Assembly: GCA_046290225.1 (NCBI GenBank)
Contig: JBKAGE010000045.1
Span: 1-64,000, forward strand
DNA: 64,000 nucleotides
DNA from: Bradymonadia bacterium
GTDB lineage: Bacteria; Myxococcota_A; Bradymonadia; UBA7976; UBA1532
Reading direction: 5' to 3'
The position numbers and the translations under genes were made by a program. Positions within the stretch are counted from its first letter, which is position 1. Every line of letters begins with the position of its first letter. A model generated the notes under the pieces. The model was not told the DNA's origin, did not search any database, and saw only the letters and a program-made list of their open reading frames with translations. Positions 1 through 59,875 of the stretch are shown piece by piece.

Positions 1-1
1 C

Positions 2-2905: not shown

Positions 2906-3014
2906 ATTAACATTCTCTCGTCGTAGAAAACGGAGATTCCCCGAATTACCCCAGGGGTTTCCTGCTTCAACAAGCTGTACCTTGCTATGACGAAGCGTAG
3001 ATTGAGATTAGCAA

Positions 3015-4010: not shown

Positions 4011-4052
4011 TAAAGCCCCGCGTGGATTTCATTCTTGATTGGCATTCAATTT

Positions 4053-42238: not shown

Positions 42239-42247
42239 CTCGTATTC

Positions 42248-43501
42248 TCAGTGTGCGTGACCGTGGCCAAGCTCGCCACGCATCAACTCAGACTTAAGAA
42301 TGAAAGCCCCTTCCACGACGACCTGTGCCCCAGGCTCAAGCCCCGTGAGCACCTCGGCCAGCCGCGCGCTCTTTTTGCCGAGCGTCACTGGGTGGACAAC
42401 AAATTCACCTTCTTCATCGCCAGGAGTGAACACAACAGTCTGCTCTTTGAGTATCTGAATCGATGAGAGTGGGAGGACGACGGATGTGGGGGCTGGCTTG
42501 GTCGACGCGAGTCGAAGAGACCCGAAGAGGCCAGGGCGAAGTCGGCCGTCGGGGTTGTCGAGTTCTACGCGGACAGGCAGGGTACGAGTTGATTCGTCGA
42601 GTGTTGTGCCTACAAAATCGACAGTGCCCGTCCAATGACGGCTTGGATAGGCGTTCAGTGTAAGGGTTGCGCTCATTCCAAGAGCGGCTTGTGCGATCTG
42701 TTGCTCATAGACTCGGCCAATGACCCACACCCTCGAGAGGTCAGCTACGATAAAAAGTGTGTCTTGAGGCGAGACGTTCTCACCGCGAGTCGCGTGTCGC
42801 TCGACTACAACTCCAGTGATTGGGCTCTCCAGTGTCATGTCAGGCCCGCTGCCACCACGAAGCCCGAAGACCCGGAGGTGAGAGCGAGCTGCATCGCGCT
42901 CTGCATCGGCTTGCTTGTAGGCCAGCTCCGCTTCAAGCAAGCTGCGCTTGGAGCTGATGCCCTCCTTGCGCAAACGCCTCTGCCTGTCTCTGTTCTGCTC
43001 TGCGACGTTGCGCAATGAGTTCGTGCGGCTGAGCTCCGCACGAGCCTGCCCGAGCTCAACACTCCTCAGTTTCGCGAGCTGGGTTTTAGTCTCCACCTGG
43101 TCGCCCAACGTGACGTCTACGCTCAACAACTGCCCTTCAACGAGGGGGCTGATGTGAGCGACCCGGTCGGGGTTGAGTTGAACTTCTGCAGGAACCTCAA
43201 TGGCATCAGTGAGTACGCCGGATTCTGCGATCCCTAGACGAATCCCACTCGTACTCTGGGCTTGAGGAGAGATCCGCACCAATAGCTCTTCGGAACCTTC
43301 CTCGCCGTGGCTACGGTCTTCGTGCCCTTCCACTTCATCCATGTGTGGTTGCTGATCATGATTGTGCTCGTCGTTTGCATGGAGCTCGTGGCTAGCTTGA
43401 TCTTCATGAGATTCGTTCACATGATCATGACCGTTGGTGTCTTGACAGCCTGATCCCATTGGTAGAGCACAAATCAGAATGAGCTGCATGGCGCGTTTCA
43501 T
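42248..43501 (-). CDS. czcB: CzcB-like RND periplasmic adaptor with His-rich N-terminus
   Basis: His-rich region, IVADLSRVWV, LRPGLFG, ends GHGHAH. Confidence 0.92.
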   Translation of the reverse strand: MKRAMQLILICALPMGSGCQDTNGHDHVNESHEDQASHELHANDEHNHDQQPHMDEVEGHEDRSHGEEGSEELLVRISPQAQSTSGIRLGIAESGVLTDAIEVPAEVQLNPDRVAHISPLVEGQLLSVDVTLGDQVETKTQLAKLRSVELGQARAELSRTNSLRNVAEQNRDRQRRLRKEGISSKRSLLEAELAYKQADAERDAARSHLRVFGLRGGSGPDMTLESPITGVVVERHATRGENVSPQDTLFIVADLSRVWVIGRVYEQQIAQAALGMSATLTLNAYPSRHWTGTVDFVGTTLDESTRTLPVRVELDNPDGRLRPGLFGSLRLASTKPAPTSVVLPLSSIQILKEQTVVFTPGDEEGEFVVHPVTLGKKSARLAEVLTGLEPGAQVVVEGAFILKSELMRGELGHGHAH

Positions 43502-44877
43502 GGGGCGCTCTCCTTGTCGGGCCACAGCTCTGTGCCGACCAGGCCTTCGAGGGTTGCAGCGGTTTCGTGGTAGGTGATGCGTGCGTCGATGTATTGCCCA
43601 GTTGCGGTCAATAGCCGCTCGCGCGTCTGTGAGACTTGGTGAACGTCAACTTCACCAAGCTCGTAGGCTCGTTGGAGCAATGAGAGATTCGCCTCGAGCT
43701 GTGGGACGACATCTGTCTCGTATAGAGCGACACGCTCTACAGCTGCGTTAAGTGCGATTGCGGCCTGAAGGAGCTCACCCCGAAGCTTAGCTGCCGTTGC
43801 TTTGCGCTCTCTGCCCGCAACTACCAGCTTGGCCTCGGCGAGCGCGCGGCCATCCTGGTTGGTCCGCCAGACTGGAATCGGGAAGGTCAGATTAAAAAGC
43901 CAGATGTCGGCCTCTCCCTCTGGGCCGGGGGCGGCCTCTCGGCTATAAGAGAAGCCAACAGTAGGCTCAGGCCACGCTTCTCGATCTTCCAGCGAGAGCC
44001 GACTCTGACCCGCAACCACGGCAAGCTCACGGGTGCGAAGTGAGGGGTGGTTCTCAGCCATCAATACTAAAAGTGCATCTGTGTCTGCCGCAGGCCGCAC
44101 ACCTGGCAGTGTGCCTTGGACCTCAGGTAGCGTTGTCTCTGGCCAGCCGATGACTGCGGCTAGCCGGGCGGTCAGCGACTCCCCTGTTTGCTGAGCCTCA
44201 ATGACCGCCTCACGAGTTTGCGCCAGATCAGCGTCAGCCACCAGCAAGATGAGGGGTGACGACTCTCCTGCCTTCACCTGTTGAGCCGCGATATTGCGCA
44301 TGGATTGCGCGAAAGCCACGAAACGCTCCGCCTGAGCAAGCCGCTCGCGTACCAGCAGGATATCGACGAAGAGTCGGTGCACCTCCACATGTACGCTCCA
44401 TCGGATCTCATTGACGGCTGCTTCGCTGAGACGTTGTTGATCCTCCGCAGCATCGAGCCTCAGCCCCGGCTCACCGGCAATCTCAAGTTGCTGCTGAACA
44501 GCCACCTCAAACTCGAAGCCAGTCGCGTTCTCGACCGTGCGCCTACCAACGCCGAAGCTAAACTGCGGATTCGCAGGGAGCACGATGTTGGCGCCAATTA
44601 CCCCCGCCTTGGCTAACCCGACCCGTGCCCATGCTGTTTGAATCACCGGAGAGTGTGAATCAGCGTATATCAACGCCTGCTCAAGTGTCAGTGCGGATAT
44701 TTTCGACGGTTCTATAGGCTTCCCAGCTGGAACATATGGCAGGACTGTCTCCGCTGGTGCGTAGACGCCTGGCTTTGGCAGAGGCCTTGTCATTCGGGTT
44801 GGTGCACACGCTGTCACCAAGCTACTACTGGTGATAGTAATTGAAGGTAGCAACCAGCCAAGGAGAGTACGCCACAT
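43498..44877 (-). CDS. czcC: CzcC/TolC outer-membrane channel
   Basis: TolC repeats (NPQF, AGE..L, AYELGE). Confidence 0.9.
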   Translation of the reverse strand: MWRTLLGWLLPSITITSSSLVTACAPTRMTRPLPKPGVYAPAETVLPYVPAGKPIEPSKISALTLEQALIYADSHSPVIQTAWARVGLAKAGVIGANIVLPANPQFSFGVGRRTVENATGFEFEVAVQQQLEIAGEPGLRLDAAEDQQRLSEAAVNEIRWSVHVEVHRLFVDILLVRERLAQAERFVAFAQSMRNIAAQQVKAGESSPLILLVADADLAQTREAVIEAQQTGESLTARLAAVIGWPETTLPEVQGTLPGVRPAADTDALLVLMAENHPSLRTRELAVVAGQSRLSLEDREAWPEPTVGFSYSREAAPGPEGEADIWLFNLTFPIPVWRTNQDGRALAEAKLVVAGRERKATAAKLRGELLQAAIALNAAVERVALYETDVVPQLEANLSLLQRAYELGEVDVHQVSQTRERLLTATGQYIDARITYHETAATLEGLVGTELWPDKESAP

Positions 44878-44889
44878 ACGAACCTCGAC

Positions 44890-45897
44890 TTAGAGCAGGG
44901 AGTGGAGCAGGCGCTCCACCTCAAAATGGAAATATTCGAGCAACCCCAGGTTGTCGATATGAGGCGTGGTGAGGGAGGCAAAAACGCCAACAGCCAGGAC
45001 TATGTGGCCAATGGTGCGTACAGGAGCTGGAGGCCCATTCATAAGCAGCTCGAGCCGTAGCTTGAGCGCAGCTCCATTGTGACCACAGAGCGCCACACCA
45101 TGCGATAGAAGGCCTTCACAGCGGAACTTGGCGGCTCGAACAATCCCCTCAGCCAAAGCGAGAGGCTCTCCGCCTCGGTGGACTGCTTCACTATCGCAGA
45201 CAGCTTCGCGCGCTGCACGCCATCGCTCGAAGTCAGGAGAGAGGAGAGCACTGGTAGGATTGACGGCAAGGCAGAGACGAGCGAGGAAGCCTCTGAGCGT
45301 ATCCAGTCCAGCAATATGAGCGTGCTCATGCAGGAGCACCGCGTGTAGGACTTCTGGGTCTGAGTCTCGAATGAAGCAAGCGTCGACCACCACAATGGGA
45401 CGCAACAAGCCCAACGTGTAGATCGGCTCAGTCGACTTGCGCACCACTACAATACGTAGAGAGTGGAGATGGGCATCTTGTTCAGCGGTGTCCATGATCC
45501 GTCTGACGAGGTCGTGTTCACACCCCAGCCGTTGGAGCTTAGCTCGGGGCCACTCCCGCCAGAGTCGAACAGCAATCATGCCTGTCATTCCAACCACCAG
45601 AAACCCAAGCAACAGCAGCGTGTCGACGCAGATCGTTGCTTCCATGTGATTGATGAAACAGGAGTCTGAGTTATGTGCTGGCTCGCTCTGATGGAGCACT
45701 GACGAAGTCAGCCACAGTACAGGAAACAAGGTTGGTGCAACGAGCCAGGCGAAGGTTGCTTCCGAACCAAAGCTTGCCCAGTTCGCAGCTCGCCGGCGGT
45801 TAAGTGAGAGCGCAACTCGGCTCCCCAACGTCAGCAGTGGGATCAAGACGAGGAATGTCGCAGCGACCGCAGTGAGCGGAAAAAAGAGATCATTCAT
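44890..45897 (-). CDS. M56 (BlaR1-like) membrane metallopeptidase
   Basis: [22 protein letters not shown]. Confidence 0.9.
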
Positions 45898-46334
45898 GAT
45901 CCCCCTCTTCTTCGCTTGCGAATCAGGACTTCCAGACGGTCCAATTCCGCATCATCAGCCTCCGCAACCCGTTCGACCAAGAATGCAACTGCAGCCTCCT
46001 GGCCCACAGGAGGAAGGCTCCCGAGCACCTCTCGGGTCATCGCCTGGATGAACTCGGACCGGCCCATTGTGGATTGATAGAGGTAACGCCGGCCTTCCTT
46101 GCGCCTGGTCAGAAGCTCCTTGTCATAGAGCCGGCTGACTGTGGTCATCACCGTCGTGTACGCAATCTCTCGTTGGCCCTCGAGTATTTCGTGGACATCG
46201 GTGACCGCGAACTCGTCCCACCCCTTCTCCCAGACAGCCTCCATAATCTCGGCTTCGAGATCATACAGCGATGTGCGCAGCCCATCCTGCTCAGGCCGAA
46301 TTCGAATGCCTTTCACAACTGCCTCCACGCACAA
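45894..46334 (-). CDS. BlaI/MecI/CopY repressor (start uncertain)
   Basis: [26 protein letters not shown]. Confidence 0.92.
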
Positions 46335-46623: not shown

Positions 46624-47073
46624 ATGCGCCAACTTCTTCTGCTCCTCTGTCTGCCCTCTGCAGCCCTGGCGTCCCCAGAGCCACCTGATGGCCATGCAAG
46701 CTGGGACGAGGGACATGAACGCAGAGGAGCAAGCAGCATGGACGCAGAAGCAGAGCAGCAGCCCTACGGCTGGGAGAAGAGTTGGGTCGACACGCAACAG
46801 GGCGACGGAGCGTGGACCCAAGGGGAGTGCTATCTCTACATGCGATGGGCAAGCAGCAATGCCTACTGGACAGCCAGGTGGTTTGGTGGTGAGAGCACCC
46901 GTCGCTTCAGAGGTGGGCGTTTCGAGGACGTTGCGCCAGCGGCGTTCAGAGCGGCCAGAGAGCTTCTGGTGGAGACAGGCCGGCTGCCTGAGATCTCCCC
47001 CGGGGAGGAGGCCTCCCACGGGCATGCAGGTACCCAAGGTGCGCGCAGCATCGACACCGGGGCCGTCGAGTGA
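46624..47073 (+). CDS. secreted hypothetical protein
   Basis: signal peptide; GTGA overlap with next gene. Confidence 0.55.
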   Translation: MRQLLLLLCLPSAALASPEPPDGHASWDEGHERRGASSMDAEAEQQPYGWEKSWVDTQQGDGAWTQGECYLYMRWASSNAYWTARWFGGESTRRFRGGRFEDVAPAAFRAARELLVETGRLPEISPGEEASHGHAGTQGARSIDTGAVE

Positions 47074-47594
47074 CGGACCAGAGCCCGAGGTGGCTCAACC
47101 TGAGGGGCCGCGACATCACCCCTCAGGATCTACTCACCGGGTGTGGTGTGATGCATCCGCCGGTGCCCATCTTCGAACTCGCCCGGTGGCTCGACGTGCG
47201 TGTCGACTTCAGCGCGAACCACGCGGATGGGCACATGGTGCTCTCCAGCTCAGCCCTCATCGTGCTCAATAGCCGCAAGCCCGCGGTGCGTCAGCGCTTC
47301 ACCCTTGCCCACCTCGTCGCGCACATGCTGCTGCACACCGACGTCGTGGAGCTCGTCGAGGACTTTAACACGCGAGACATGGGCCCTGTGGCCCAGCGCC
47401 GGCAACCGCATCTGTGGGAGAGGGAGCGCGAGGCCGATGACTTCGCCGCCGAGCTGCTCGTGCCCAGCAAGATGCTTGACCTGGACCTGCTCGAGGAGAA
47501 GTGGCGAGACCCCGACCTGCTGGCGCAGCGGTATCAGGTCTCGCCCACCACGATGCAGGTGCGGTTGAAGGAGTTGCTCAAGCCTGGGCCCTGA
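47070..47594 (+). CDS. ImmA/IrrE-family metallopeptidase-like protein lacking the catalytic Glu
   Basis: RQRFTLAHLVAH (HExxH to HLxxH), EREADDFAAELLVP. Confidence 0.8.
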   Translation: MTDQSPRWLNLRGRDITPQDLLTGCGVMHPPVPIFELARWLDVRVDFSANHADGHMVLSSSALIVLNSRKPAVRQRFTLAHLVAHMLLHTDVVELVEDFNTRDMGPVAQRRQPHLWEREREADDFAAELLVPSKMLDLDLLEEKWRDPDLLAQRYQVSPTTMQVRLKELLKPGP

Positions 47595-47603
47595 TCTGCC
47601 CCG

Positions 47604-47987
47604 TCAGGCGGCGTGGAACTCTTCGGCGATGCCCAGCAGGATTTCGGTGGGGATCCCAAGGCCCACGTGGAGCTTGCGGATCATGTCGAGCGAGAGGCTG
47701 CGCTTACCGGAGAGCACCTCCGACACACGGCCACTGTGCCCGATGTAGGGCTCCAGGTCCTTACGGCTGAGCCCCTGCTGCTCCATGCGAAACTTGATGG
47801 CCTCGATGGGCGAGGGCGGTGGCAGAGCATGGTGCCGGCGCTCGTATTCGTCGATGAGCACCGAGAGCACTTCCATGGCGTCGCGGGCGTCCTGGTCAGA
47901 CGCCAGCCGAGGCCACAGATCGTCGACGAGAGCCACAGCACGGGCGTGATCTGCATCATCACGGATGGGGCGGATTTCGATGCTCAT
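47604..47987 (-). CDS. higA: HigA-like antitoxin (no cognate toxin adjacent)
   Basis: IRPIR..LIDEYE..PIEAIKFRMEQQGL..KRSLSLDMIRKLH. Confidence 0.9.
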   Translation of the reverse strand: MSIEIRPIRDDADHARAVALVDDLWPRLASDQDARDAMEVLSVLIDEYERRHHALPPPSPIEAIKFRMEQQGLSRKDLEPYIGHSGRVSEVLSGKRSLSLDMIRKLHVGLGIPTEILLGIAEEFHAA

Positions 47988-48020: not shown

Positions 48021-50042
48021 TCATGTCTTGAGCCCCTTCAAGTACTCCGCCCACCTCGAGGCGATGACGCCCCAGTCCAACCCGCGGGCGCGCTCCACTG
48101 CCTCACCTGCCAGCCGGCGACGCATCGCAGCATCAGCGATGGCCTGAGCGACTGCCTCTTCGAGATCATCATGGGGCACGACAAGGGCATCTTGGTCGTG
48201 GGTGGCGTACTCGTCGACGCCGCGGCACTGAGTGCTCACGAGGGTGGCGCCAGAGGCCATCGCTTCGAGGCCAGTGAGCCCGAAACCCTGGTACTCGCTG
48301 GGCTCGACAACGATGTCCACCTGGGCCATCAGCTCGGCGAGGTCCCTTCGGCCCAGGCGACCGTGGCGACCGCAGGCGCCGACACAGCTGGGCACGTTCG
48401 CTTCGTGGCCCGTCCACCCGAACAGCTCGAGGGAGATGCGATCTCCAAAGCGGCGGTGCAGGCCTTCGTACACCTGGCGCAAGCGAGCCATGCCCCGACG
48501 CACCGCGGTCTTGGGCCGCCACATGGCGAGTACTCGCACTCGGCGGTTGTCGCGGGGCCCTCGGGGATGGAACAGGGCCGTGTCTACGCCGGCGGGAATG
48601 ACGGAGTACTTCTCCCGCTGCAGCCCGAGGTCCTCGGCGGCGGTGTCGAGGATCCAACGCGAGACGCCGATGCCGCGGCCGATGTCGATGAACCCGCGGA
48701 TCATCTCTTCGGTCATGCCCCGGCGACCGTTGCCCTCGAACCAGTCTTCTCGATCCTGGAGCACCGTGGTCAGCTGGAGGTCGGGGTTGCTGTCCACGAT
48801 CTCTCGGGCCACCTTCCCAGCACCCCAGTGGCTGGCCACGACGATGCCCTCGCTCCAGCCCAGGTGCCGGCGCCAGTCGGTCTTGAGCTGCGAGGGATGG
48901 CGCACCATGACCGGCGGCACCTGCGGGCGGAACTGGTGCGGTGTGAGGCTGTGCCCCACGACCTGAGCCCAGACGCCGTGCTTGTGGAGTCGATCTGCCA
49001 GCTCGAGCAAGAGAAGTACTCCACCCCAGGGGCCGACGTTGGAGGTGTAGAGTGCCACCGGCAGGCCTTGTGGCCGATGGTATGCCACTGCAGCACGGGC
49101 TGCGCTCGTCTCGATACCCCAACACGATGATGCGCCGCCGTCGGTGTCCACGAGCTCGCTGATGGGCCCAGGTCGATCATGGGCCCGCCACACGAAGGCG
49201 CTCTGACACACCACGGTGGTGCTTCGGATGCACGGGCGCTTGCCCTCGGCCATCTGTGCCACCAAGGGGCCGCACAGCAGCAGCACCCCGGGGTGTCTGG
49301 GGCAACCAGGGATCGGGGGCAGGGCAGATCCCCTGAGGGCAGCATCGATCTCCGCCGGCGGCAGGCCACCTCGGATCCGGGGATGAGGGCTTGTGGCATC
49401 GCCGGGGGCGGGCAGGTCCGTCGGGGCGCTCACGTTGCACAGAGGCACGACCGCGCCGGCGCCGTTGGCCTCCCGTGCTGCCAGAAGACGATCACCGAGG
49501 CCTTCGCCGACGACGACACCGTGCTCGATGATCAGTGCAGCCCCGACATTGCCCTCGTCGAGGATCGGACCGAGCAGGTGGTGAAGCCGACCGCCCTCGA
49601 GGAGATCAGCCGCGGTGTCATCGGGGCCCAACTGGATCTCAACGAGGGGCCCATCGGTGTATGCCGAGATCTCCAGCTGCTGCTGCGGCGCATCCATGGG
49701 ACCCCCACCAAAGGGGCTGTCGATGGCCCGACCTGGCCAGGGCTCAGCGCCGTTGTGTCGGTTGCTCATGACGGCCTTTCGTTTCTTGGGCGGCTCGGGG
49801 CGTAGAGGGCGTGCCAGGGCCTGTCGTGGCTCTGGGGCATACCCGAGGCGGGCCGAGACCTCCTTGGGCTCCAGAGCGGCGCCCAGGTGGCTCACGGCGT
49901 CGTTCGGAAGGTGCCTGTAGTGCCAGGCCAGGATGTAGTCACCCGGACGCACCTCGATGGGTGCCTGCCCAGGCAAAGACAGCGTCGTCGGCGCCGGGCC
50001 CCCATACCTGCGCCACAGCTCGAGGTCGAGGATGCTCCTCAT
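48021..50042 (-). CDS. glycosyltransferase with C-terminal GT-B/GT4 domain
   Basis: GVDTALFHP, PSEYQGFGLTGLEAMASG. Confidence 0.85.
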   Translation of the reverse strand: MRSILDLELWRRYGGPAPTTLSLPGQAPIEVRPGDYILAWHYRHLPNDAVSHLGAALEPKEVSARLGYAPEPRQALARPLRPEPPKKRKAVMSNRHNGAEPWPGRAIDSPFGGGPMDAPQQQLEISAYTDGPLVEIQLGPDDTAADLLEGGRLHHLLGPILDEGNVGAALIIEHGVVVGEGLGDRLLAAREANGAGAVVPLCNVSAPTDLPAPGDATSPHPRIRGGLPPAEIDAALRGSALPPIPGCPRHPGVLLLCGPLVAQMAEGKRPCIRSTTVVCQSAFVWRAHDRPGPISELVDTDGGASSCWGIETSAARAAVAYHRPQGLPVALYTSNVGPWGGVLLLLELADRLHKHGVWAQVVGHSLTPHQFRPQVPPVMVRHPSQLKTDWRRHLGWSEGIVVASHWGAGKVAREIVDSNPDLQLTTVLQDREDWFEGNGRRGMTEEMIRGFIDIGRGIGVSRWILDTAAEDLGLQREKYSVIPAGVDTALFHPRGPRDNRRVRVLAMWRPKTAVRRGMARLRQVYEGLHRRFGDRISLELFGWTGHEANVPSCVGACGRHGRLGRRDLAELMAQVDIVVEPSEYQGFGLTGLEAMASGATLVSTQCRGVDEYATHDQDALVVPHDDLEEAVAQAIADAAMRRRLAGEAVERARGLDWGVIASRWAEYLKGLKT

Positions 50043-50266
50043 CAGCCAACCCCCTTGAGCCAGGACCAGAGCGCCCGCCAGTAGTTGCGGACGTAGGGCG
50101 ACACGTAGACCAAGAGCCGCCCAGTGAAGGGCAGATGCTCTGTGAGGACGCAGGGCCACCCATCGAGCCTCGAGCACTGCTCGTTGGAGCACAGGCGGTG
50201 CGGTAAGCCGTAGTACACCACCCGGTGCTGGTGGGCGCCGCAGGACGGGCACTGGTCGGTCGTCAT
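50042..50266 (-). CDS. small Cys-rich protein
   Basis: CPSC..CSNEQC; coupled on both sides. Confidence 0.6.
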   Translation of the reverse strand: MTTDQCPSCGAHQHRVVYYGLPHRLCSNEQCSRLDGWPCVLTEHLPFTGRLLVYVSPYVRNYWRALWSWLKGVG

Positions 50267-50880
50267 CGAAGCTGCTCCAGAAGATCGAGGCTGTTCAGGA
50301 TCAAACTCCGAGTGCCCCTCGCGTCGCCCAAAGCGGTGTGGAGACCACCATGTGGGATCTCAGCGCCGAGGTAGCTCCAGGCATCAGCAGTGCCCACGAA
50401 CTCAGGCGGCATAGCGCCGGTGGAGGCCAGGGCCAGCTGTAGAGCGTGGGTGTCGACCAGCCTGTGGCTGAAGAAGCGCCGGAAGAAGCCAGGCTCGAGG
50501 GCGAGATGCTCGAGCCGCAGCAAGAACCCCCAATCGAAGTGGGCGTTATGCGCCCCGAAGAGCAGCGGTGCCCCGCGGTGATCTGGACGTTGCTCGGCGC
50601 AGCGCTGGGCGATGGGCGTCAAGAAGCGTTCGATCTGCCTGAGGGCCTCGGCGGGCAGGACACCCTCGTCGCGCACAACCTCGAGGTCGATCTTGTTCAC
50701 CTCGAGGGCCTCTTGCTCGACGGAGAGCTCGGGCTCTCTCACGTAGAGGCGAAGCTCTTCGCCATCGGGCCCCACGAGTCCTACCTCAAGGAGCGAGTGG
50801 AGCCAGGGATCTGTGCCCCCGGTCTCCACGTCGACGGCGACAATGCGATCTCGCATCTGCTGCAGCGACGGCGGCCTCAA
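50263..50880 (-). CDS. DnaQ-like DEDDh 3'-5' exonuclease
   Basis: VDVETGG, AHNAHFD, HTALGDA. Confidence 0.92.
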   Translation of the reverse strand: MRPPSLQQMRDRIVAVDVETGGTDPWLHSLLEVGLVGPDGEELRLYVREPELSVEQEALEVNKIDLEVVRDEGVLPAEALRQIERFLTPIAQRCAEQRPDHRGAPLLFGAHNAHFDWGFLLRLEHLALEPGFFRRFFSHRLVDTHALQLALASTGAMPPEFVGTADAWSYLGAEIPHGGLHTALGDARGTRSLILNSLDLLEQLR

Positions 50881-51638
50881 GGGAACTGCCTGCGGGTGGG
50901 AGGTGGCAGCATCTGATGAAAGCGATCAGTGAGCTCGCGGTACATCTCCATGTGATGCTTTGCCGCATCGGTCTTGATGGCGGTCCCGAGCTCGCCGTCT
51001 TTGACTTCAGTGATGGCGCCAGCGCCAGACCCCTTCCGGCGATGCAGGGCAGCCTCGGCGATGGTGAGGAGCCGACTGATGTCCTGACCCTCGCAGTCCT
51101 GTGCTGTGGCATACCGAGTCGTGTTGTAGCTGAAGACCACGCTGTGCACCTGCACCGGCGTCGGCATCAGGTAGACGCTGGCTTCGCTGCTGTCCCGATC
51201 GTTGTAAGTCACCCCTTCGCCGAGGAGGCGCGACAGCGCCTTGCGCTCCCGGGCCAGGATGGCCACCGCCGAGGGCTCGATGGAGGTGCGGGTTCCGATC
51301 TCATTGATGGGTCGACCCAGGCTCTGGCCGAGCAGTCCCAGGACGTGACCCCACCCCTGCCAGGACGACACCCCAGGGCTCTGGTCCAAGGGCCACCAGA
51401 CGTGACGCAGGCCCACGGCACCCTCGGGAAGGGGCTGGTACACTTGCTGCCCGGGTACAGTCTGAAAGGTACCAACACCTGTGCGAGGGCGGTGGTTGTT
51501 CAGGATCTCGAGCCCCTCGATGATGGCCCCGTCGACCATCACGTCCGGCACGCTGACTGTGTCCTTGGGATACCCGACCGCCGTTCGCAGGTACTCGCGC
51601 AAGGCGTGCGGGGTCCCAATGCGCTCTCTGAGCGTCAT
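50877..51638 (-). CDS. putative neck/head-tail adaptor protein
   Basis: LREYLRTAVGYP..V..AIIEGLE; YLMPTP; resembles T4 gp13-type neck N-terminus. Confidence 0.55.
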   Translation of the reverse strand: MTLRERIGTPHALREYLRTAVGYPKDTVSVPDVMVDGAIIEGLEILNNHRPRTGVGTFQTVPGQQVYQPLPEGAVGLRHVWWPLDQSPGVSSWQGWGHVLGLLGQSLGRPINEIGTRTSIEPSAVAILARERKALSRLLGEGVTYNDRDSSEASVYLMPTPVQVHSVVFSYNTTRYATAQDCEGQDISRLLTIAEAALHRRKGSGAGAITEVKDGELGTAIKTDAAKHHMEMYRELTDRFHQMLPPPTRRQFP

Positions 51639-51681
51639 CGTCTGGCTCCTTGATGTGAGAGGAAGGTGGGGTGGGCGTCTG

Positions 51682-52341
51682 TCAGCTGACGGCTGAGCCC
51701 TTGCGGCTGCTCATGCCCAGGGAGGCCATGCGCTCTTCGTTGCGCTGGTCCCTGATGAGCACTGAGAAGTGCAGAACTGGCGGGCGGCTGTCGAACTCCT
51801 CTACGAACCGCTTGATGGCGTCGTTGCTCTGCCGGCTCATGATGAAGTGCTGAGCCTGGAACACCGAGTGGTGGATCTGCTCCCCCTCCCGAGTCACATA
51901 CCCATCGTAGTCGGTGCCTTTGGTGTAGTAGCAGGTTTCGATTCGCTGCCCTTTGTGATCAAAGTAGGCCTTCGACGGGACGTCCTTGGGCTTTGCCGGT
52001 GGGATGACGTCGAGCGTTGGCAACACCGCGCGACCGTCTGGCCACTGTTTCGTGTATGCCTTGATGAGGTTGCGGGCCTGCTTCACCGTCAGCTCGGGCG
52101 TCACGCCGAAGGGTCCGACCTCCACCTGCCGGAAGGCTTGCTGCTTCGCCCCAATGGGCATGTTGATGGTGATGGTGCCAAGCCCCAGATGTACCAAACG
52201 CACCTTCGCTGTGGCCTGAAGCCCGTCGAGGGCCTTGAGACCACCAAGAGGCCTTGCCAGTCCGCCCTGGCCCTCCTCCATGACTCCTGACTGATCTGCG
52301 CCGCTCTGGCTGGCAGCTTCTGTTCCTCGCTTGCTGGGCAT
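51682..52341 (-). CDS. hypothetical late protein
   Basis: AGGAG RBS; late motif upstream. Confidence 0.6.
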   Translation of the reverse strand: MPSKRGTEAASQSGADQSGVMEEGQGGLARPLGGLKALDGLQATAKVRLVHLGLGTITINMPIGAKQQAFRQVEVGPFGVTPELTVKQARNLIKAYTKQWPDGRAVLPTLDVIPPAKPKDVPSKAYFDHKGQRIETCYYTKGTDYDGYVTREGEQIHHSVFQAQHFIMSRQSNDAIKRFVEEFDSRPPVLHFSVLIRDQRNEERMASLGMSSRKGSAVS

Positions 52342-52379
52342 CTTTGCTCCTGTTTCCTTGCTGTGCTTGCCTGCGAGAA

Positions 52380-52411
52380 ACAGTGCAATCAGCGCAGCAA
52401 AGATGGCGAAA
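52380..52411 (-). promoter_or_regulatory. shared late-promoter-like motif, copy 7
   Basis: TTTCGCC-N19-CACTGT. Confidence 0.6.
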
Positions 52412-52504
52412 CGCGTTCGAGGCTCAGCGCTGGCTCGAGGGTCAACACGAGGGCAACACAAAAAACGTGTTGACTGAACATAGGGTCAGTTGTAGGGTTT
52501 CCCT

Positions 52505-52626
52505 CGGTGGGCCGGTTGGTCTTGGGGCCCTGCCCCGCCCCCCACACCCAAGGGCGGCCGACTCCACCAATCTTCTTGAACCCCCCCGAGCAACCTTGAC
52601 TCCCTGCTCGGGGGGGTTTTGTTTTT
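52505..52626 (+). ncRNA. candidate small RNA (long hairpin with C-rich loop plus terminator)
   Basis: TTGACT(52470)-17-TAGGGT promoter; stem 52506-52568 with G-U pairs; 14-bp terminator stem 52579-52618 plus T-tract; no credible ORF. Confidence 0.55.
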
Positions 52627-52630
52627 GGGC

Positions 52631-55552
52631 TCAGCCCACCTTTCCCCCAAGCACAGTCCATCCCTTGAACCGTCCCAGGAGACCAAGCCCGGGCACATTC
52701 GCTTGGTAGGTGCCGGTGTTGCGCAGATGGCAGCGACGTTGGCCCGGGATCTGGGTTTGGGCCACGATGGCCACATACCCGCGGGGTCGGAGCACCCTGC
52801 GCACCTCTTGGAGCAGGGGAGCGAGCTCGGCGTCGGTCATCTCTTCGACGCCGCCGGCGAGCAGCAGATCACTGGCATCGTCCGCGGGGAGATTTGCGAT
52901 CGTCGACGAATCGACGATGCGCGCCTCGATGTCCTTGCTGCCCAGCATCTCTACAGCAACCTGAGCCCACGCCCCGAGAGCCAACACCGGGCCGTGTCGA
53001 CGGCGCAGGCGTACGAACTCGATGCTCTCGATGCACTTGGCCAGGGCCTGCGCTTGAGCATCCTCGAGAGCGCCCACCTGGGGCATCGCGCCGACTACAG
53101 CTGAGCACTTTGGCAGCGGTAGAGGATCACCCCAGGGCCCGGCGGACATGATGACTGCCGTCTGTGCCTCGTCGCCGGCTTGCACGGCTTGGTCGTAGAT
53201 GCTCCCGGCTGGATCTTTGATGATCTGGAACTCACCTTCCTCCCGGGCCAGAGCCACCATGGGCACACCCTGATCCCGCGCGGCCAGCGCAACGAAGAGA
53301 TCTGCCATGTTGGGTTGGGTAAACATCTCCAGTCTCAGGGCCAGCGTCGAGGTGTGGTAGGCCATCACACCAGTCCCGAGCACATGGACCGGCGTATCGG
53401 CATCAGACGCTTCGGTCATGTGGCGGACCGTTCGATCCTGATAGTACGAGCCCACGTCCCCATGCAGAACGGCCCCGTGAAACCCAAGCACGGCCTGGCG
53501 CTGGTAGTTCTCGATGCGCGCCGCGAGCACTGAGGCGTACAGCTGCGGATACTCGATGTCGTCGTCGACAAGCAGGTGGTATGCCCCCTGGCCCTGCCGG
53601 AACTTCCACAGCAGGCGCTCGCTGCGATCGGCGTAGTAGGCCTCGGAGAGGAGATCCTCGACCCAGAGCATCTTGCCGGCGTCGCCGAGGGTGTTGTCCT
53701 CGAGGCGCACCGTGATCCAGGGCCTGTCGAGCCACTCAGGTGCTTCGTCCCAGCCGTTGAGGCAGATGTTCAAATGGTCGACTTGACCCTCGAGCCGGCG
53801 GACCACCTCTCGCAATGACTCTGCCCGCCGTGGGATCGCAGCCATCGACGCGATGACGGGGCAGGCAAGGTGGTGGGCCAACTGCCAGCAGCGGTCATCG
53901 CCGTCGACGTGGTTGATGGTGATCAGATCAACCTTGGCCCGAGCCTCAGGGTTCATCATGGATTCACCATACAGGTGCACCACCAGGCTGCCCTTCACCC
54001 GATACTGATGCAGGCCTGCGCCATCGAGGGCCCGAGAGAGCATCATGCCCACCCCACACGAGAGTGATGGGTCTTGGTCCCATCGATCCGCCGGCGGCTC
54101 GGGGCATGTCCACTCCATGGCCTCATGAAAGACTCGATCCGCGGCGAAGGCGCCATCGACCCAACTGATCTCATCAACCGGACCTCGACCCACAGGCGTG
54201 TGCCCCGTCCAGCAGGTGGTGTCAGGGCTATTGCGTGCCGAGTCGATGTGGAGCACCAGCGTGGCTCGATCTTCCTCGGGCGCAGATGCCCAGGCCTCGT
54301 CGAGGCGCTCGAAGAACCTGTCACACAGGCGCATATCGTCATCGAAGTACACCCACAGGCGCGGTGACTCGAGGCGCTGAGCGGCCATCTGCAGGCCACG
54401 CCATCGGCAGTACCCTCGCTTGCCATGGTTCGTGTCGGCCCTGACGTAGAGCCACCCCTTCTCGGCAAGGAAGCGCCGCACCACCAGCATGTCAGCGGTG
54501 CTGGCATCGTCGTATACCTGCACCCCGATCTGGGTCGAGGTCGCCTCGCTCTCCCGGGCCAGGTCGAGCAGTAGATCGAGCAGCTGCCCAGGGCGGTTGA
54601 AGGTCGAGATCACCACCTGCACGCCCCCGGTGGGGCACTGGGGCACTGCCAGAGCCGGCAGGTCAACCCCTGAGACGATGCCGAGCTGCTCGAGCCACCA
54701 GTCCGCCTCGGCTTTGATCTCGGCGGCCTTCTGCTCCCTGCGGGCCTGCTTCTCGTTCTGGCCCTTTGTGCGCCCCTTGTCCTTGCGGTGGGGCTGGTGG
54801 AGGATCCGAACACTCGCCAGCAGCCGGATGTCGAGGACACCCTCTCGCTGCAGCCCCTTGAGGCGGTCGATGATCTCCTCTTTGTTGCCACCCCAGCCGG
54901 TGAAGTACTCGTCGAAGCCCCCGAGAGCCTTGAGGATGGCCCGGGGGATGATGGGCATGCCCTCGGGCAGGTCCGACACCCTCACGCTCGCCGGCGGCCC
55001 AGGCTGGTATCGATCCAGGAACCCAGAGTGCACGGGCTCGAACTCATCGAACTTGCCCACGAGATCGGCCCAGGTCTGCTTCCCCTTGACCCATGAGCTC
55101 GACGCGCGGATCCACTTCGAGGGTGTGCCGGTGATGCCACCCATGCACGGCGTCAATACCGCGGGCAGGCCCCGATGCGTCGCCGCGGTCAACTCGGCCA
55201 GGGCGTGAGTGATCGCGTGGGGCGGGAGGATGAAATCGCCATCCATGATCCAGCACCACAGCGCCGTCGACGCTCGCCACGCTGCGTTGCGCGCGTGGTT
55301 GCGGTGGGGCAGCTTGGCCCCCTCGGGCCGGGGGCTGTCCACCACCATGACGTCATGACGGCACGTGGGGGCCAGCTCGGCCACCAGCGCCTGCACAACA
55401 CCATCGGGATCTGGTCCATCGACGGCGACGATGACGTCGAAGAGATCTGGTGCGCAGTCTTGGGCGCTCAGAGACAGCAACTGGCGCCGAAGCAGCTCGA
55501 CTCGATCAGACGCCGAAGACGTTGGGATACAGACGGACAGATAGGCAGACAT
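52631..55552 (-). CDS. multi-domain glycosyltransferase (three GT-A modules plus C-terminal methyltransferase-like domain)
   Basis: LSVCIPT..DGDF..GGFDEYFTGWGG; VVISTFNR..DDAS..FDDD; IPRR..DAGK..VDDDIEYP..GTG; EVRRVLRPRG. Confidence 0.85.
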   Translation of the reverse strand: MSAYLSVCIPTSSASDRVELLRRQLLSLSAQDCAPDLFDVIVAVDGPDPDGVVQALVAELAPTCRHDVMVVDSPRPEGAKLPHRNHARNAAWRASTALWCWIMDGDFILPPHAITHALAELTAATHRGLPAVLTPCMGGITGTPSKWIRASSSWVKGKQTWADLVGKFDEFEPVHSGFLDRYQPGPPASVRVSDLPEGMPIIPRAILKALGGFDEYFTGWGGNKEEIIDRLKGLQREGVLDIRLLASVRILHQPHRKDKGRTKGQNEKQARREQKAAEIKAEADWWLEQLGIVSGVDLPALAVPQCPTGGVQVVISTFNRPGQLLDLLLDLARESEATSTQIGVQVYDDASTADMLVVRRFLAEKGWLYVRADTNHGKRGYCRWRGLQMAAQRLESPRLWVYFDDDMRLCDRFFERLDEAWASAPEEDRATLVLHIDSARNSPDTTCWTGHTPVGRGPVDEISWVDGAFAADRVFHEAMEWTCPEPPADRWDQDPSLSCGVGMMLSRALDGAGLHQYRVKGSLVVHLYGESMMNPEARAKVDLITINHVDGDDRCWQLAHHLACPVIASMAAIPRRAESLREVVRRLEGQVDHLNICLNGWDEAPEWLDRPWITVRLEDNTLGDAGKMLWVEDLLSEAYYADRSERLLWKFRQGQGAYHLLVDDDIEYPQLYASVLAARIENYQRQAVLGFHGAVLHGDVGSYYQDRTVRHMTEASDADTPVHVLGTGVMAYHTSTLALRLEMFTQPNMADLFVALAARDQGVPMVALAREEGEFQIIKDPAGSIYDQAVQAGDEAQTAVIMSAGPWGDPLPLPKCSAVVGAMPQVGALEDAQAQALAKCIESIEFVRLRRRHGPVLALGAWAQVAVEMLGSKDIEARIVDSSTIANLPADDASDLLLAGGVEEMTDAELAPLLQEVRRVLRPRGYVAIVAQTQIPGQRRCHLRNTGTYQANVPGLGLLGRFKGWTVLGGKVG

Positions 55553-55751: not shown

Positions 55752-56189
55752 TCAGCCTGCCTTCTGGGCCGGGGCGGCGCCTACCAGATCCAAGGCCTCG
55801 GGGTGGGCGTCGAGTACTCGGAGCAGGTTCGACAGTGCCTGACTCGGCACGATGGAACCCGACTCATACTTATTGAAGGCTTTGACCCCGCCGCCGAGAC
55901 GGATCCCAGCCTGTCGCTGGCTCAACCCGAGGCGCTCACGGATCGTCCGAACCTGGGCCGGCGAGAGCACCCCCTTGGCCTCGGCGCGCAGTTCCTGGTG
56001 TGCCTCGAAGCTCATGCGCGCCTCTGCACCAGTGAACAGGGCCTCGCCACATGCATTGCACCACCAGCCGGGCTGCATGATCTCACGAGAGAGGGTCACA
56101 CCCCCATCGGTGTACTCAACGACGTCGGGGCGCGTCTCATGGACCATGCCAGGGGCGCCACAGGACGGACACGTGGGTTGCTTGCTCAT
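55752..56189 (-). CDS. mqsA: MqsA antitoxin
   Basis: CPSC..CNACGE Zn finger; LGGGVKAFNKYESG HTH. Confidence 0.92.
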   Translation of the reverse strand: MSKQPTCPSCGAPGMVHETRPDVVEYTDGGVTLSREIMQPGWWCNACGEALFTGAEARMSFEAHQELRAEAKGVLSPAQVRTIRERLGLSQRQAGIRLGGGVKAFNKYESGSIVPSQALSNLLRVLDAHPEALDLVGAAPAQKAG

Positions 56190-56212
56190 GTCGATTCTCC
56201 TGGCCTGCGGCC

Positions 56213-56530
56213 TTACTTCTCTTTGAACGAGATCAGCCGGTAGCTGAACTCGATGATCTGATCCTCGCCGAACTTCACATACAGCATGCGACCCTCAACC
56301 CTGATGCAGGGCACATGGTAGACGTCCTGCCACTTCCTGTGATCGCCGTGGACCGTCATGCTCTTGTAGCAATGGCGAGGCTTGATGGTCTCGATCAGGG
56401 TCAAGATCTCGGCTTCATAGTACCCGAGATCCCTGGCGGTCTTCGTGGCCGTTCGGGTGATGCTCAACCCACCCTCGCTCATCTGCTTCTTGATGGCGTC
56501 GAGAGAGTAGTGTGCGCTTCGCTTTTCCAT
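56213..56530 (-). CDS. mqsR: MqsR mRNA interferase toxin
   Basis: MEKRSAHYSL, YKSMT..DHRKWQDVY, ISFKEK. Confidence 0.93.
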   Translation of the reverse strand: MEKRSAHYSLDAIKKQMSEGGLSITRTATKTARDLGYYEAEILTLIETIKPRHCYKSMTVHGDHRKWQDVYHVPCIRVEGRMLYVKFGEDQIIEFSYRLISFKEK

Positions 56531-56548
56531 AATCCCTCGCCCAAACCG

Positions 56549-56567
56549 TGTCATCATTGTGGTGACA
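56549..56567. promoter_or_regulatory. palindromic operator in mqsRA promoter
   Basis: TGTCA-N9-TGACA overlapping the -10 of TTGACT-17-CACAAT. Confidence 0.6.
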
Positions 56568-56610
56568 TTGGAGTAAAGAGTCAATGGGGGGCGATTGCCC
56601 CCCGTGCGTT

Positions 56611-56934
56611 TCAGTAGACCCGGCAACGACCAGAGATGAGTGCGCGGTCCTCTTCGAGGCCGAAGATGGTGTCGAAGACGACATGCAGGGTGCCGACATG
56701 CTCACCGCATTCGAAGCACACCGCGTTGGGATCTTGCGCATCCCGATCAGTGATCGTCTTGGGGCCCTGGCCCTGGATGCGGGGCGTCTCCGATCCACAG
56801 CAAGGGCACCTCTCCGGCTGCAGGTGGTTCACCGGGCGGTCTGAGCGACGCCCGAGGTAGACGAACTTGGCGCCCTCGTTGGGCAGGGTGCAGTGGAAGG
56901 TGTGACCGTCAGTGGTGATGAGGGTGATGTTCAT
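56611..56934 (-). CDS. small Zn-finger protein (leader cassette A)
   Basis: CPCC..CFEC; ends TIFGLEEDRALISGRCRVY; repeated leader. Confidence 0.75.
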   Translation of the reverse strand: MNITLITTDGHTFHCTLPNEGAKFVYLGRRSDRPVNHLQPERCPCCGSETPRIQGQGPKTITDRDAQDPNAVCFECGEHVGTLHVVFDTIFGLEEDRALISGRCRVY

Positions 56935-56976
56935 GGTGTGTCTCCGAAGGGAGTGTCCGAGGTCCGCTCGGTCGGG
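56931..56976 (-). repeat. 46-nt structured leader, copy A
   Basis: CCCGACCGAGCGGACCTCGGACACTCCCTTCGGAGACACACCATGA. Confidence 0.9.
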
Positions 56977-57124
56977 TTGTTGACCATCGCCAACTGATAA
57001 AGACTCTATCACCGACCTCCCTCTGTGGCAACCCTAAACAAAAACAAGTTTGTGTTGTTTTGGTGTTGACTCGAAGGAGGGGCTTCGGTATAACCATAAT
57101 CACTGAGCGACACAGAGTTGCTCA

Positions 57125-57170
57125 CCCGGCCGAGCGGACCTCGGACACTCCCTTCGGAGACACACCATGA
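57125..57170 (+). repeat. 46-nt structured leader, copy B
   Basis: 1 mismatch to copy A. Confidence 0.9.
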
Positions 57171-57400
57171 ACGCCATCAACACCAACTCCACCCTCAAGC
57201 CCACCACCAACGGCGCCATCTTCTCGGTGGCCCACTTCCACGCTCGCAACCGTGAGGGTGGCACCTACCGTGCCGCCTTCGCAGCCACCCTTCGGGCCAT
57301 CACCACCATCCTGAAGACCTTCGAGGCTCGCTTCGACTGCGAGCCCGAGGACTGCGAGTGGAGCGAACTCTGCTACTTCCTCAACACCGCCCTCGACTGA
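57167..57400 (+). CDS. small hypothetical protein (leader cassette B)
   Basis: TTGACT-17-TATAAC promoter, leader, GC hairpin terminator after stop. Confidence 0.75.
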   Translation: MNAINTNSTLKPTTNGAIFSVAHFHARNREGGTYRAAFAATLRAITTILKTFEARFDCEPEDCEWSELCYFLNTALD

Positions 57401-57529
57401 GGGCAACGGGGGGCGCAAGCCCCCCTGTTTCGGCCTGCTACCACGCGATGTGAGACCGGTGACCCCTTCGTCAAGAGGGTCACCATCCGACCGGGAGGAC
57501 CCCGGAAGTCCCCATGTGGAGATGCACCC

Positions 57530-58075
57530 ATGATCATTACCCCCTTCATGACGGCCTCTGAGGTCCAAGCATCGGCCGAGAGCCAGGCAACCTATGCCCA
57601 GGTCCAGGCTGAGCCACTGAGGGCGCTGTATGCGTCCCTGTGGGCCGATCCCCATCGAACCGCTGGCGTCTATGCGAGGGCGTGCGGGCTTGGCGAGATC
57701 GATGCGCTACGTCGGCTGAACCAGCTTCAACGCCTCGGGCTTGTGGAGTCGAGCCCCGTCGAGTGGATCGGAGATCGCGTCATCAGCTGGAGCCCTTGTG
57801 GCTTCCGCCCTGGCGCCGTGGGCTTCAGTCTCAGTGATCAGACCATCCGCTGGACCGGGATGCATGGCAGCCGCACCATCTCATGGGCCGAGCACGACAA
57901 GCTCATCGATGTCTTTGGCGCCACGTCCTGGCATGTAGAGGCCTGGACCCCGCTCCACTGGGCACGGCTGATGGCCCACCCCATGGGCTCCACCTGGGCC
58001 CTGCGCTCCCTCCTGTGGACAGGGCTGTGTCACGACGTGGCGCTGCTTCCCGTCGCCGAGCGGGGAGTCTCATGA
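57530..58075 (+). CDS. hypothetical protein with possible winged-HTH
   Basis: TAGVYARACGLGEIDALRRLNQLQRLGLVE. Confidence 0.55.
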   Translation: MIITPFMTASEVQASAESQATYAQVQAEPLRALYASLWADPHRTAGVYARACGLGEIDALRRLNQLQRLGLVESSPVEWIGDRVISWSPCGFRPGAVGFSLSDQTIRWTGMHGSRTISWAEHDKLIDVFGATSWHVEAWTPLHWARLMAHPMGSTWALRSLLWTGLCHDVALLPVAERGVS

Positions 58076-58290
58076 GCCACGTGTGTCAGCCCTGGAATGT
58101 GGCCTGGTTGACCTACGGTGGACCGGTCTTCGCCGTGTTGAGCGGTGGGGAAATTATCAGCGGAGAGGCGACGGACCGCCGTCTGGGACCAGGTGTTCCG
58201 CTGATCCGGGTAAGCCAGCCGGAGTCAGGTCGTGAGGTGTGGCTGCACCCTCGATATGTCTGGCCACGCTGGAAGCCGCCAGAGTCCTGA
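58072..58290 (+). CDS. small hypothetical protein
   Basis: ATGA overlap with upstream gene. Confidence 0.5.
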   Translation: MSHVCQPWNVAWLTYGGPVFAVLSGGEIISGEATDRRLGPGVPLIRVSQPESGREVWLHPRYVWPRWKPPES

Positions 58291-58396
58291 TGAATGCCCG
58301 AGGGGCACCAAAGGCCATACCCCGGGGCGGATGCCCCCTTTCCTTGAGCTGGGCGATATGATGTTTGACCCTCATGGGCCACGAGATGGAGATCTG

Positions 58397-59224
58397 ATGA
58401 GCGAAACTTACACCACCGTTGCCGGCGAGAAGATCACCTACGACGCTCCGGAAGCTCCGATCATGAGCTTCCTGCTTGAGGTCATGCACACGGCTGCAGA
58501 TCCGAAGGTAAGCACCATGGCCCTGTACGATCTCGTGCACGGGGTACGTAACCCGATCCTCCGCCAGGGGGTCGTGCCTGGGCGAGGCATCGTGACTGAT
58601 GAGGCCTACGACGATCCCGTCTACCGCATCATGCTCGATCAGATCGCCCTCAAGCGCATCGCACGGGGCGACGCCGACACCTCCACCGAGGGCGCCAAGA
58701 TCTTCAACCTCTCCGTCTCTGAGGCGGCCGAGATCATCGGCATCTCGCCGCAGGGCGTGCGCAACTCGCTGAGCCGTGGATCTTGGCCGTACGTCCGCAA
58801 GGACGGCCGCATGATGATGGCCATCGAAGATGCCGAGCGGTGGCGCGACAAGCATCAGAACCGAGGCGCCGGGGGCAGCAAGACCCCAGGCCAGGCCGAG
58901 GCGGCGCCGTCGGGGGCTCTTCAAGTCCGCCTCGGCAACGTCAAGGGGCTGTCGTTCTTCGTGAAGAATGCGGCACCAGACCTGGCGAACAAGCGAGCCG
59001 ATGGACGCCACGTGCATTGCGGCGAGATCCCCGAAGGCTGGCAGCGGATCGCAGTCAAGAGAGCTGAGGGCAAGAAGAGCACCATGTTCGTGCTCGAGCC
59101 CGGGCCGGAAGAGGCAGAGATCGAGTGGAAGGGGTTCTATGTCCGCGGGCGGTTCACCATCACACAGAAGATCAACAACGCCCGCGAGATCAGCGCGGCA
59201 TGGAAGGCGTTCGAGCCTGCTTGA
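58397..59224 (+). CDS. excisionase/MerR-type HTH DNA-binding protein
   Basis: LSVSEAAEIIGISPQGVRN..G..P..KDGR. Confidence 0.75.
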   Translation: MSETYTTVAGEKITYDAPEAPIMSFLLEVMHTAADPKVSTMALYDLVHGVRNPILRQGVVPGRGIVTDEAYDDPVYRIMLDQIALKRIARGDADTSTEGAKIFNLSVSEAAEIIGISPQGVRNSLSRGSWPYVRKDGRMMMAIEDAERWRDKHQNRGAGGSKTPGQAEAAPSGALQVRLGNVKGLSFFVKNAAPDLANKRADGRHVHCGEIPEGWQRIAVKRAEGKKSTMFVLEPGPEEAEIEWKGFYVRGRFTITQKINNAREISAAWKAFEPA

Positions 59225-59268
59225 GGGGGCCGATTTTCTAATTTTCGCAAACCGGCCTCGCCCTTACC

Positions 59269-59721
59269 TCAGGCCCCTTCCAGAGCCTCCCGCACCGCTT
59301 CTCGGATGGCCTCAACCCCACCTTGTTGCTCACGGATGTTCGCCATCCACATCTTGGTGAAGTCGCACTGCTCTTCCACCGCTATAGGGCGGAAGCGCAC
59401 AGGCCGATCGGCGCCATCGAGCTCAAGGGCCTCCTGGAAGTATGGGGGGATGGACCTCGAGAAGCTCACCGGCAGCCATGCATCAGTGGCTTCGATGTAG
59501 ATGAACTCCATGTCAGGATCTGAGCACATGTCGCCGTTTTGCAGGAAGTAGTGAGCCACCGAGAACCGGTGCTCAGTCAGGCGGTTCACATAAACCGCCA
59601 TGTATACGCCGTCACTGTTATCGAATTTGATGCCCTGGCCTTCTTTCAGCCCATCAGTAAGCGCCTTGAGGACGTCCGAGACCTGAGTGATGCCTTCGTC
59701 GCCAAAGAGGAAATTTGTCAT
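59269..59721 (-). CDS. DUF6908-like protein (leader cassette C)
   Basis: SVAHYFLQNGDMCSDPDMEF..WMANIREQ. Confidence 0.7.
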   Translation of the reverse strand: MTNFLFGDEGITQVSDVLKALTDGLKEGQGIKFDNSDGVYMAVYVNRLTEHRFSVAHYFLQNGDMCSDPDMEFIYIEATDAWLPVSFSRSIPPYFQEALELDGADRPVRFRPIAVEEQCDFTKMWMANIREQQGGVEAIREAVREALEGA

Positions 59722-59763
59722 GGTGTGTCTCCAAAGGGAGTGTCCGAGGTCCGCTCGGTCGGG
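59718..59763 (-). repeat. 46-nt structured leader, copy C
   Basis: 1 mismatch to copy A, in the hairpin loop. Confidence 0.9.
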
Positions 59764-59875
59764 TGAGAGGCTCAACGCCCATCAGTGAGTACATTTATAC
59801 TCGCTCTGTCTTGCCTTGTCAACACGGATTCAGCACAACGGTGTGTTGTTTTTGTTGTCTGGTGAGGTGGATCTG

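Follow-up and report, generated by a model that had tools for sequence, protein, structure and literature searches.

Why should unrelated small genes at one phage locus begin with nearly the same structured leader, and what would read it? The question is raised by a stretch of 64,000 nucleotides (nt) from a Bradymonadia bacterium (positions 1 to 64,000 of contig JBKAGE010000045.1, assembly GCA_046290225.1; hereafter the window), in which an initial annotation described three such genes behind near-consensus promoters and a common 46-nt leader. We find that the conserved unit is not this 46-mer: it is a 20-nt core, CCGA-CCGRG-MGGNN-CYCGG-A, which lies behind a 5′ hairpin of free sequence and recurs in other viruses. 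The small genes are called A to D, and their leader copies likewise (Table 1).

The three annotated copies, A to C, are present; 100 shuffles gave no match, and across the 8.58-Mb genome only these three sites lie within 14 mismatches of the 46-mer. Their identity ends at the start codon as proposed (43-44 of 45 positions in the leader vs 16-22 of 35 in the upstream blocks), and both leader hairpins, together with a variable 5′ hairpin, form the minimum-free-energy fold. It is also true that the differences between copies fall outside the stems, as had been noted, but this is weak, given a chance of p ~0.37 that two differences would avoid the 18 stem positions of 46. Because the fold of the 46-mer is no more stable than that of shuffles (z -0.27), the three copies by themselves give no proof of structure. 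Their extra identity over 46 nt probably reflects recent copying inside this phage.

A fourth, diverged copy, D (57487-57533), had been overlooked; it was discovered through a weak match of the A-C profile at 57477-57532. Among the scored ATGs (9,625 with GGAG, of the 243,538 in the genome), those of A-D alone fell within 12 points of D's score. In D the second hairpin is degenerate, and stem pair 4 is G-C where A-C have A-U, a double change with a chance of 1-3% under simple models; a covariation shuffle control over the four rows was not significant (130/500). No promoter was found for D by the sigma70 scan.

The sequence common to A-D and to a leader in a genome of another class (locus L377, described below) was used as the core in the search of viral contigs. 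It matched 66 of them, 44 distinct, whereas the two-hairpin and exact patterns found nothing in viral contigs, in genomes or in 60 relatives, so that neither the 46-mer nor the hairpin hiding its ribosome-binding site (RBS), both put forward as the element, can be upheld in that role. A contig passed the promoter-plus-ATG test if its core lay 21-29 nt behind the end of a sigma70-like -10 and was followed after 14-23 nt by an ATG opening a reading frame (ORF) of at least 40 codons. Of the 44 distinct contigs 18 did so, hereafter the 18 carriers; of 8,556 anchors placed at random in these loci, the share was 0.23% (p 4e-36). The free-sequence 5′ hairpin precedes the core in 17 of the 18 carriers; stem pair 4 is G-C in every one and never mismatched. 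The loop opens with C in 14 and with A in 4, and it is variable at positions 4-5. Among the remaining 26 distinct contigs pair 4 is A-T in 7, G-C in 14 and mismatched or wobble in 5; several of the 26 look real by eye and were left out of the count. When the 18 carriers were folded together with nine copies picked by eye, 21 of these 27 formed the core hairpin with a pair probability of 0.86 or more. The stretch from core to ATG is mostly A-rich and unpaired in the carriers, often without a Shine-Dalgarno sequence, and the RBS-hiding hairpin is therefore a local feature, not a conserved one.

Downstream proteins of the carriers are small and mostly unrelated, with three homologous pairs among the 18; three of 21 have a PHROG match, none of them anti-defence, and the other 18 fall into no PHROG family. 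The core occurs as a single copy in each of the nine other records searched. At one locus (L460, in the 12-kb record G447) it precedes a 71-amino-acid (aa) virion structural protein, which presumably resembles an inovirus coat protein.

Rfam returned no match for the window at the gathering score, for the leaders at E<=10 or for nine carrier loci at E<=1, and known ribozyme cores were seen in the leader neither by eye nor by Rfam. Literature text searches, which did not extend to the supplements of the large motif surveys (PMC5737381, PMC8040213), did not find the motif either, and motif strings brought up only papers on human mRNA localisation. The A-D model gave nothing better than E 0.015 outside its own genome among 113 genomes of the class; with a longer pattern, none of 10 distinct genome matches, L377 included, passed the promoter-plus-ATG test, nor did any different-stem variant among the loci examined. 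Several candidates were set aside: 8 and 94 matches from two further pattern searches were judged chance or coding; one-mismatch matches of a 26-nt pattern in 400 genomes of the phylum equalled the control (5 vs 5) and were dropped, G404 holding the only exact one; and the sole match of a metagenome scan, 26 nt exact and antisense inside a vapC-like gene in chromosomal context (L012:5000-5025), was taken as chance. A single D-like string before a secreted-protein gene (L226; 33 bits, with ~40 such matches expected over the whole collection) was not counted and may be real. An H-type pseudoknot between the lead-in CCG and a loop CGG is possible, but covariation does not back it, and four of the 18 carriers begin the loop with A.

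An all-against-all comparison of 28 records carrying the motif, most of which cover only 2.5 kb on each side of the motif, revealed one small protein family in 15 of them, its members mostly 59-88 aa long, always on the same strand as the motif and 210-2609 nt downstream of it. From a short strand followed by two helix-like segments we take it to be a ribbon-helix-helix (RHH) family. Its profile detected members at 19 of 66 motif loci, against 0 of 69 loci of DUF6908 (the family of gene C) and 0 of 80 terminase loci, and covers 16 of the 18 carriers if the whole of record G444 is counted. At the present locus the candidate regulator is instead a 275-aa protein with a winged helix-turn-helix (HTH), whose homologues pass HTH_17. 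In L377, a model built from A-D only, run over 57 kb in five loci, finds the leader upstream of a 104-aa gene and an HTH gene (22.3 bits, E 0.002); this leader has a 5′ hairpin, and a second hairpin capped by GAAA covers its RBS. The motif is thus shared while the adjoining regulator-like gene differs, being RHH-like by prediction in most carriers and winged-HTH here and in L377. Among 400 other genomes of the phylum, three hold homologues of the HTH protein, at four loci in all; of the three loci besides L377, two have their own repeats before nearby genes and one has none. The repeats near these homologues, four copies of an AT-rich dyad (L380:1829-8775) and three hairpin repeats before successive genes (L378:9823-10917), are candidate operators.

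The sequence of the core, its fixed position, its conservation across phages, its fold and its co-location with a regulator-like gene are all observed features, and since this anatomy matches that of acr-aca operons we tentatively favour, at a little below an even chance, an Aca-like, self-repressed early operon whose operator is the core, read as RNA. A strong host-type sigma70 promoter would start the transcript, which would present first the free-sequence hairpin, next the CCGA lead-in and a hairpin of 5 bp closed by an MGGNN loop, and finally a single A, with the start codon following 14-25 nt on. The small genes would be made in a burst upon entry or induction, while the regulator encoded alongside them, an RHH-like protein in most phages and a winged-HTH protein here, builds up; it could then bind the hairpin beside the ribosome site and shut the small genes off, as Aca2 does. 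Timing of expression, binding, direction of control and action on RNA rather than DNA are what we infer here. The modular promoter-leader-gene units of the initial annotation, with a shared structured leader before genes that are probably early and co-regulated, are supported, once the 46-mer and its RBS-hiding hairpin are given up as the element.

Several points weigh against this self-repressed operon. It requires that one motif be recognised by two unrelated folds: the RHH-like family was not found in this contig (best 7 bits) nor in L377, the HTH was not found in any of five other carriers, and the motif stands beside only one of the four HTH loci in other genomes, where, moreover, it failed the promoter test. 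The profile of the RHH-like family was trained on its 15 members, and the distance windows of the carrier test were set after the distances had been inspected. Covariation is seen at one pair only, the search pattern having fixed the other positions; the core hairpin is the dominant fold in no more than those 21 of the 27 picked copies, a DNA palindrome would show the same symmetry, and the carriers may be related, as four share other genes.

The chief obstacle is that the regulators are exchanged, which lends support to a conserved host machine as the reader, either as a put- or boxB-like antiterminator acting on RNA polymerase or as a 5′ stabiliser or translation enhancer, with the regulators acting only at DNA sites such as the dyad upstream of the promoters. 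We regard this as unlikely, though it has an appreciable chance. The same 20-mer is present in loci whose GC content spans 40-65%, accompanied by either of two regulator genes or by none that was detected, its distance from the promoter is fixed, two hairpins stand at the very 5′ end, one copy precedes a virion structural gene, and the hairpins after genes A and B lack U-runs. Against a host reader stand the tight link to one small regulator-like family (16 of the 18 carriers), the constant spacing to the ATG, which points to a function where translation begins, and copy D, for which the scan found no promoter.

Rather less probable is a DNA operator in the core, a 5-5-5 palindrome with CCG repeats at about +15 to +40, on which an RHH or HTH dimer would block early elongation, folding being incidental. 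RHH proteins normally bind DNA, and the core is palindromic. Aca14, as described in PMC13551039, is an RHH repressor. A DNA site does not readily explain why both arms change together (A-T vs G-C), why the motif is asymmetric and in sense with promoter and gene in all 18 carriers, or why a hairpin free in sequence is kept just before the core in 17 of them.

A repeated cassette of the PeSL type, kept alike by recombination and shuffling small genes with no special RNA function, is improbable, and as sole explanation it is already weakened. The end of leader identity at the ATG would fit, PeSL crossovers falling between the -10 and the ATG by the account in PMC2839356. Element-specific repeated leaders were, moreover, detected in 15 of 54 distinct DUF6908 viral loci vs 0 of 49 terminase loci (p 2.5e-5; loci <5 kb and near-duplicates dropped, from 69 and 80), as well as in 7 of 62 DUF6908 genome loci, one a coding-repeat artefact; none of the repeated leaders near DUF6908 genes resembles the present one. 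The PeSL stem-loop described in PMC2839356, however, lies upstream of the promoter, no gene swap was seen, and the core is conserved between phages that hold it singly. A PeSL-like habit would account for the four copies and the near-identity of A-C, not for core conservation in single-copy carriers. Those single copies also undercut the recombination platform proposed in the initial annotation, and the relatives of gene C, gene D and the HTH gene, all of which list a contig of 4240 nt, hint at a fixed gene order. DUF6908 genes lie within arrays of 3-11 element-specific repeated leaders in L013, L022, L024, L025, L038, L040, L053 and L099, and DUF6908 may mark phage early or host-takeover regions. 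At L066:1279-5017, repeated leaders before at least five genes carry hammerhead-like words, seen by eye and not called by Rfam, and lie next to an Rfam-called pistol ribozyme.

A site for the host's CsrA, with one GGA in the loop and another in the RBS, is very improbable: the host has csrA and fliW, and the two GGA lie 20-21 nt apart, inside the bridging range given in PMC7652899, but the A of A(N)GGAX that PMC4005645 describes as irreplaceable is missing from A-C (loop CGGAC) and D alone fits, the loop lacks GGA in 6 of 18 viral copies and in L377, and several host flagellin leaders carry canonical ANGGA sites. Still harder to credit is a site-specific recombination site inverting the PA/PB promoter segment or the B-C segment; the A/B and B/C pairs are indeed inverted repeats and the contig has a tyrosine recombinase, but that gene is 52 kb away, copies elsewhere are single and the motif keeps a fixed distance from promoter and start codon. 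A host repeat of the REP or MITE kind was rejected, as the four copies are confined to a 2.9-kb stretch of one phage contig and are not spread in numbers across the chromosome.

Table 1. Features of the leader cluster and of the element carrying it, in window coordinates.
Feature	Position	Strand	Basis or remark
Core copy A, 20 nt	56956..56975	-	inside 46-nt leader 56931-56976
Core copy B, 20 nt	57126..57145	+	inside 57125-57170; one mismatch in CCGA lead-in
Core copy C, 20 nt	59743..59762	-	inside 59718-59763
Core copy D, 20 nt	57487..57506	+	new; loop AGGAC; follows hairpin 3′ of gene B
Variable 5′ hairpin P0 of A	56979..56994	-	weak; missing from centroid fold
Variable 5′ hairpin P0 of B	57104..57124	+	fold
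Variable 5′ hairpin P0 of C	59764..59784	-	fold
Variable hairpin P0 of D	57458..57484	+	fold
Promoter PA, TTGCCA-17-TAGAGT	57003..57031	-	sigma70 scan
Promoter PB, TTGACT-17-TATAAC	57066..57094	+	sigma70 scan
Promoter PC, TTGACA-17-TATAAA	59794..59822	-	sigma70 scan
Imperfect 7-4-7 dyad	57040..57057	.	common to divergent PA/PB, 8 bp from each -35
Same 7-4-7 dyad	59831..59848	.	8 bp upstream of PC -35
G/C hairpin 3′ of gene A	56586..56603	-	no U-run
G/C hairpin 3′ of gene B	57408..57425	+	stem same as hairpin 3′ of A
Terminator-like hairpin before HTH gene	58324..58337	+	terminator scan
Gene A, 107 aa, Cys-pair (zinc-ribbon-like) orphan	56611..56934	-	one 81% relative
Gene B, 77 aa, orphan	57167..57400	+	database searches
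Gene C, 150 aa, DUF6908	59269..59721	-	family match
Gene D, 181 aa, orphan	57530..58075	+	one 75% relative
72-aa ORF overlapping gene D end	58072..58290	+	no family match
275-aa protein, central MerR/Xis-type winged HTH, candidate regulator	58397..59224	+	matches weak for this copy
Regions of ABC-3C-like, RND efflux, IrrE-like plus HTH and glycosyltransferase-like genes	7104-10029, 39080-46334, 47070-47987, 48021-55552		window coordinates

The three promoters exist as the initial annotation wrote them and make up three of the four sigma70-like sites detected on the 98-kb contig, PA and PB standing divergent and back to back. Two features around them had escaped notice. One is the 7-4-7 dyad, of which the contig holds two at <=2 mismatches where 0.23 are expected; it lies upstream of the promoters without overlapping them and is a candidate DNA operator or UP element. 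Half of the dyad recurs with the same -35 context at 52441-52460 (-), without a good -10 and without a leader. The other is the near-identity of the hairpins 3′ of A and B, which had been called terminator-like: the hairpins are there, but they have no U-run and were not called by the terminator scan.

Genes A, B and D have no significant match in Pfam, PHROG, PADLOC or NCBIfam, gene C has none in PADLOC or NCBIfam, and in atlas searches neither A nor B fell into a family with a name; nor did family searches of genes A-D identify a known acr gene in the cluster. The best fold match of DUF6908 is VC0508 (Z 7.4, rmsd 3.8, 107 aligned), which gives no function, and the literature search found no papers on the family. 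Several Myxococcales genome bins (L082-L095) hold two to four DUF6908 genes each. Directly 3′ of gene A, at 55752-56580, is an MqsR/MqsA toxin-antitoxin pair with its own promoter-like site and an adjacent palindrome.

The contig that carries the window is 98,278 bp long and encodes a terminase, ParA, the tyrosine recombinase and ABC-3C-like genes. Both of its ends (window 1-112; contig 98165-98278) enter a multicopy repeat with an identical 16 bp beside each, as would be expected if a circular phage or phage-plasmid had been opened at a single insertion; such a closed circle would imply an unusually long target duplication. Besides the ABC-3C-like genes, which are of a defence type, the element holds a region with an RND efflux gene, IrrE-like and HTH genes and two large genes resembling glycosyltransferases. 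Its repeats include an inverted one of 43 nt close to parA (window 10466-10677) and a direct one of 84 nt, of which one copy runs into the end of the recombinase gene (window 2822-4139). The host has csrA-fliW within a flagellar cluster, together with seven flagellin-like genes (C75 228029-243192, C78 and C64).

What is new in this element can be delimited as follows. Its architecture is of a known kind, and the motif is in no RNA catalogue searched; the element could still prove to be known if the RHH-like family were Aca14 or if the motif stood in the survey supplements. A bolder reading, which we hold to be less likely than not, is that it represents an undescribed, widespread phage leader RNA whose core is near-invariant across base compositions while its regulator is exchanged between unrelated folds, so that either a host machine reads it or two folds have converged on one RNA operator. 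In the former case, with RNA polymerase or the ribosome reading the core, it would act as a transferable switch through which early genes are expressed in a burst. Since nearly every gene behind the core is an orphan, the core would be usable as a gene-finding tag: if the reading holds, these 20 nt would flag orphan genes under strong expression and tight control in many uncultured phages, among them new host-takeover and anti-defence genes, much as aca genes have guided anti-CRISPR discovery. An RHH-linked RNA operator or a host-read leader would likewise join the few known ways in which phages time their early genes.

Among known systems, the HK022 put RNA and the lambdoid boxB place two hairpins directly after an early promoter, with a 5-bp stem and a 5-nt loop; the present leader differs in having no Rfam sequence match and a fixed distance to the ATG. 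The start-associated repeats (SAS/ESAS) described for cluster K mycobacteriophages in PMC3203893 similarly precede unrelated small genes, with upstream inverted repeats and a function given as unknown, but SAS is there a 13-bp RBS-like word of one cluster, whereas here the conserved part is a hairpin, and the ATG follows it at 14-25 nt. The PeSL cassettes that PMC2839356 and PMC4122927 describe from T4-like phages likewise put a repeated AT-rich tract, a sigma70 promoter, an RBS and an ATG in front of orphan genes in a variable region; their stem-loop is an upstream terminator in ~50 copies per genome with genus-level sequence, while here the conserved hairpin lies inside the transcript, in four copies, and is shared between phages that mostly carry one. 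The closest likeness is to acr-aca operons, for which PMC13551039 describes a strong promoter, a dyad near it, hairpins from the transcription start, a conserved start-codon distance and a regulator gene in the cluster, several operons or intergenic sites falling under one regulator; according to the same source, Aca1 and Aca2 bind 5′ untranslated-region hairpins, and their control is predicted to extend to adjacent operons and intergenic sites. The present cluster differs in that no known acr gene was identified, the regulator would be a 275-aa three-part winged-HTH protein, and the same motif accompanies an RHH-like gene elsewhere. It agrees with Aca-regulated operons in having an HTH or RHH regulator gene in the cluster and an inverted repeat at the promoter, here upstream and non-overlapping.

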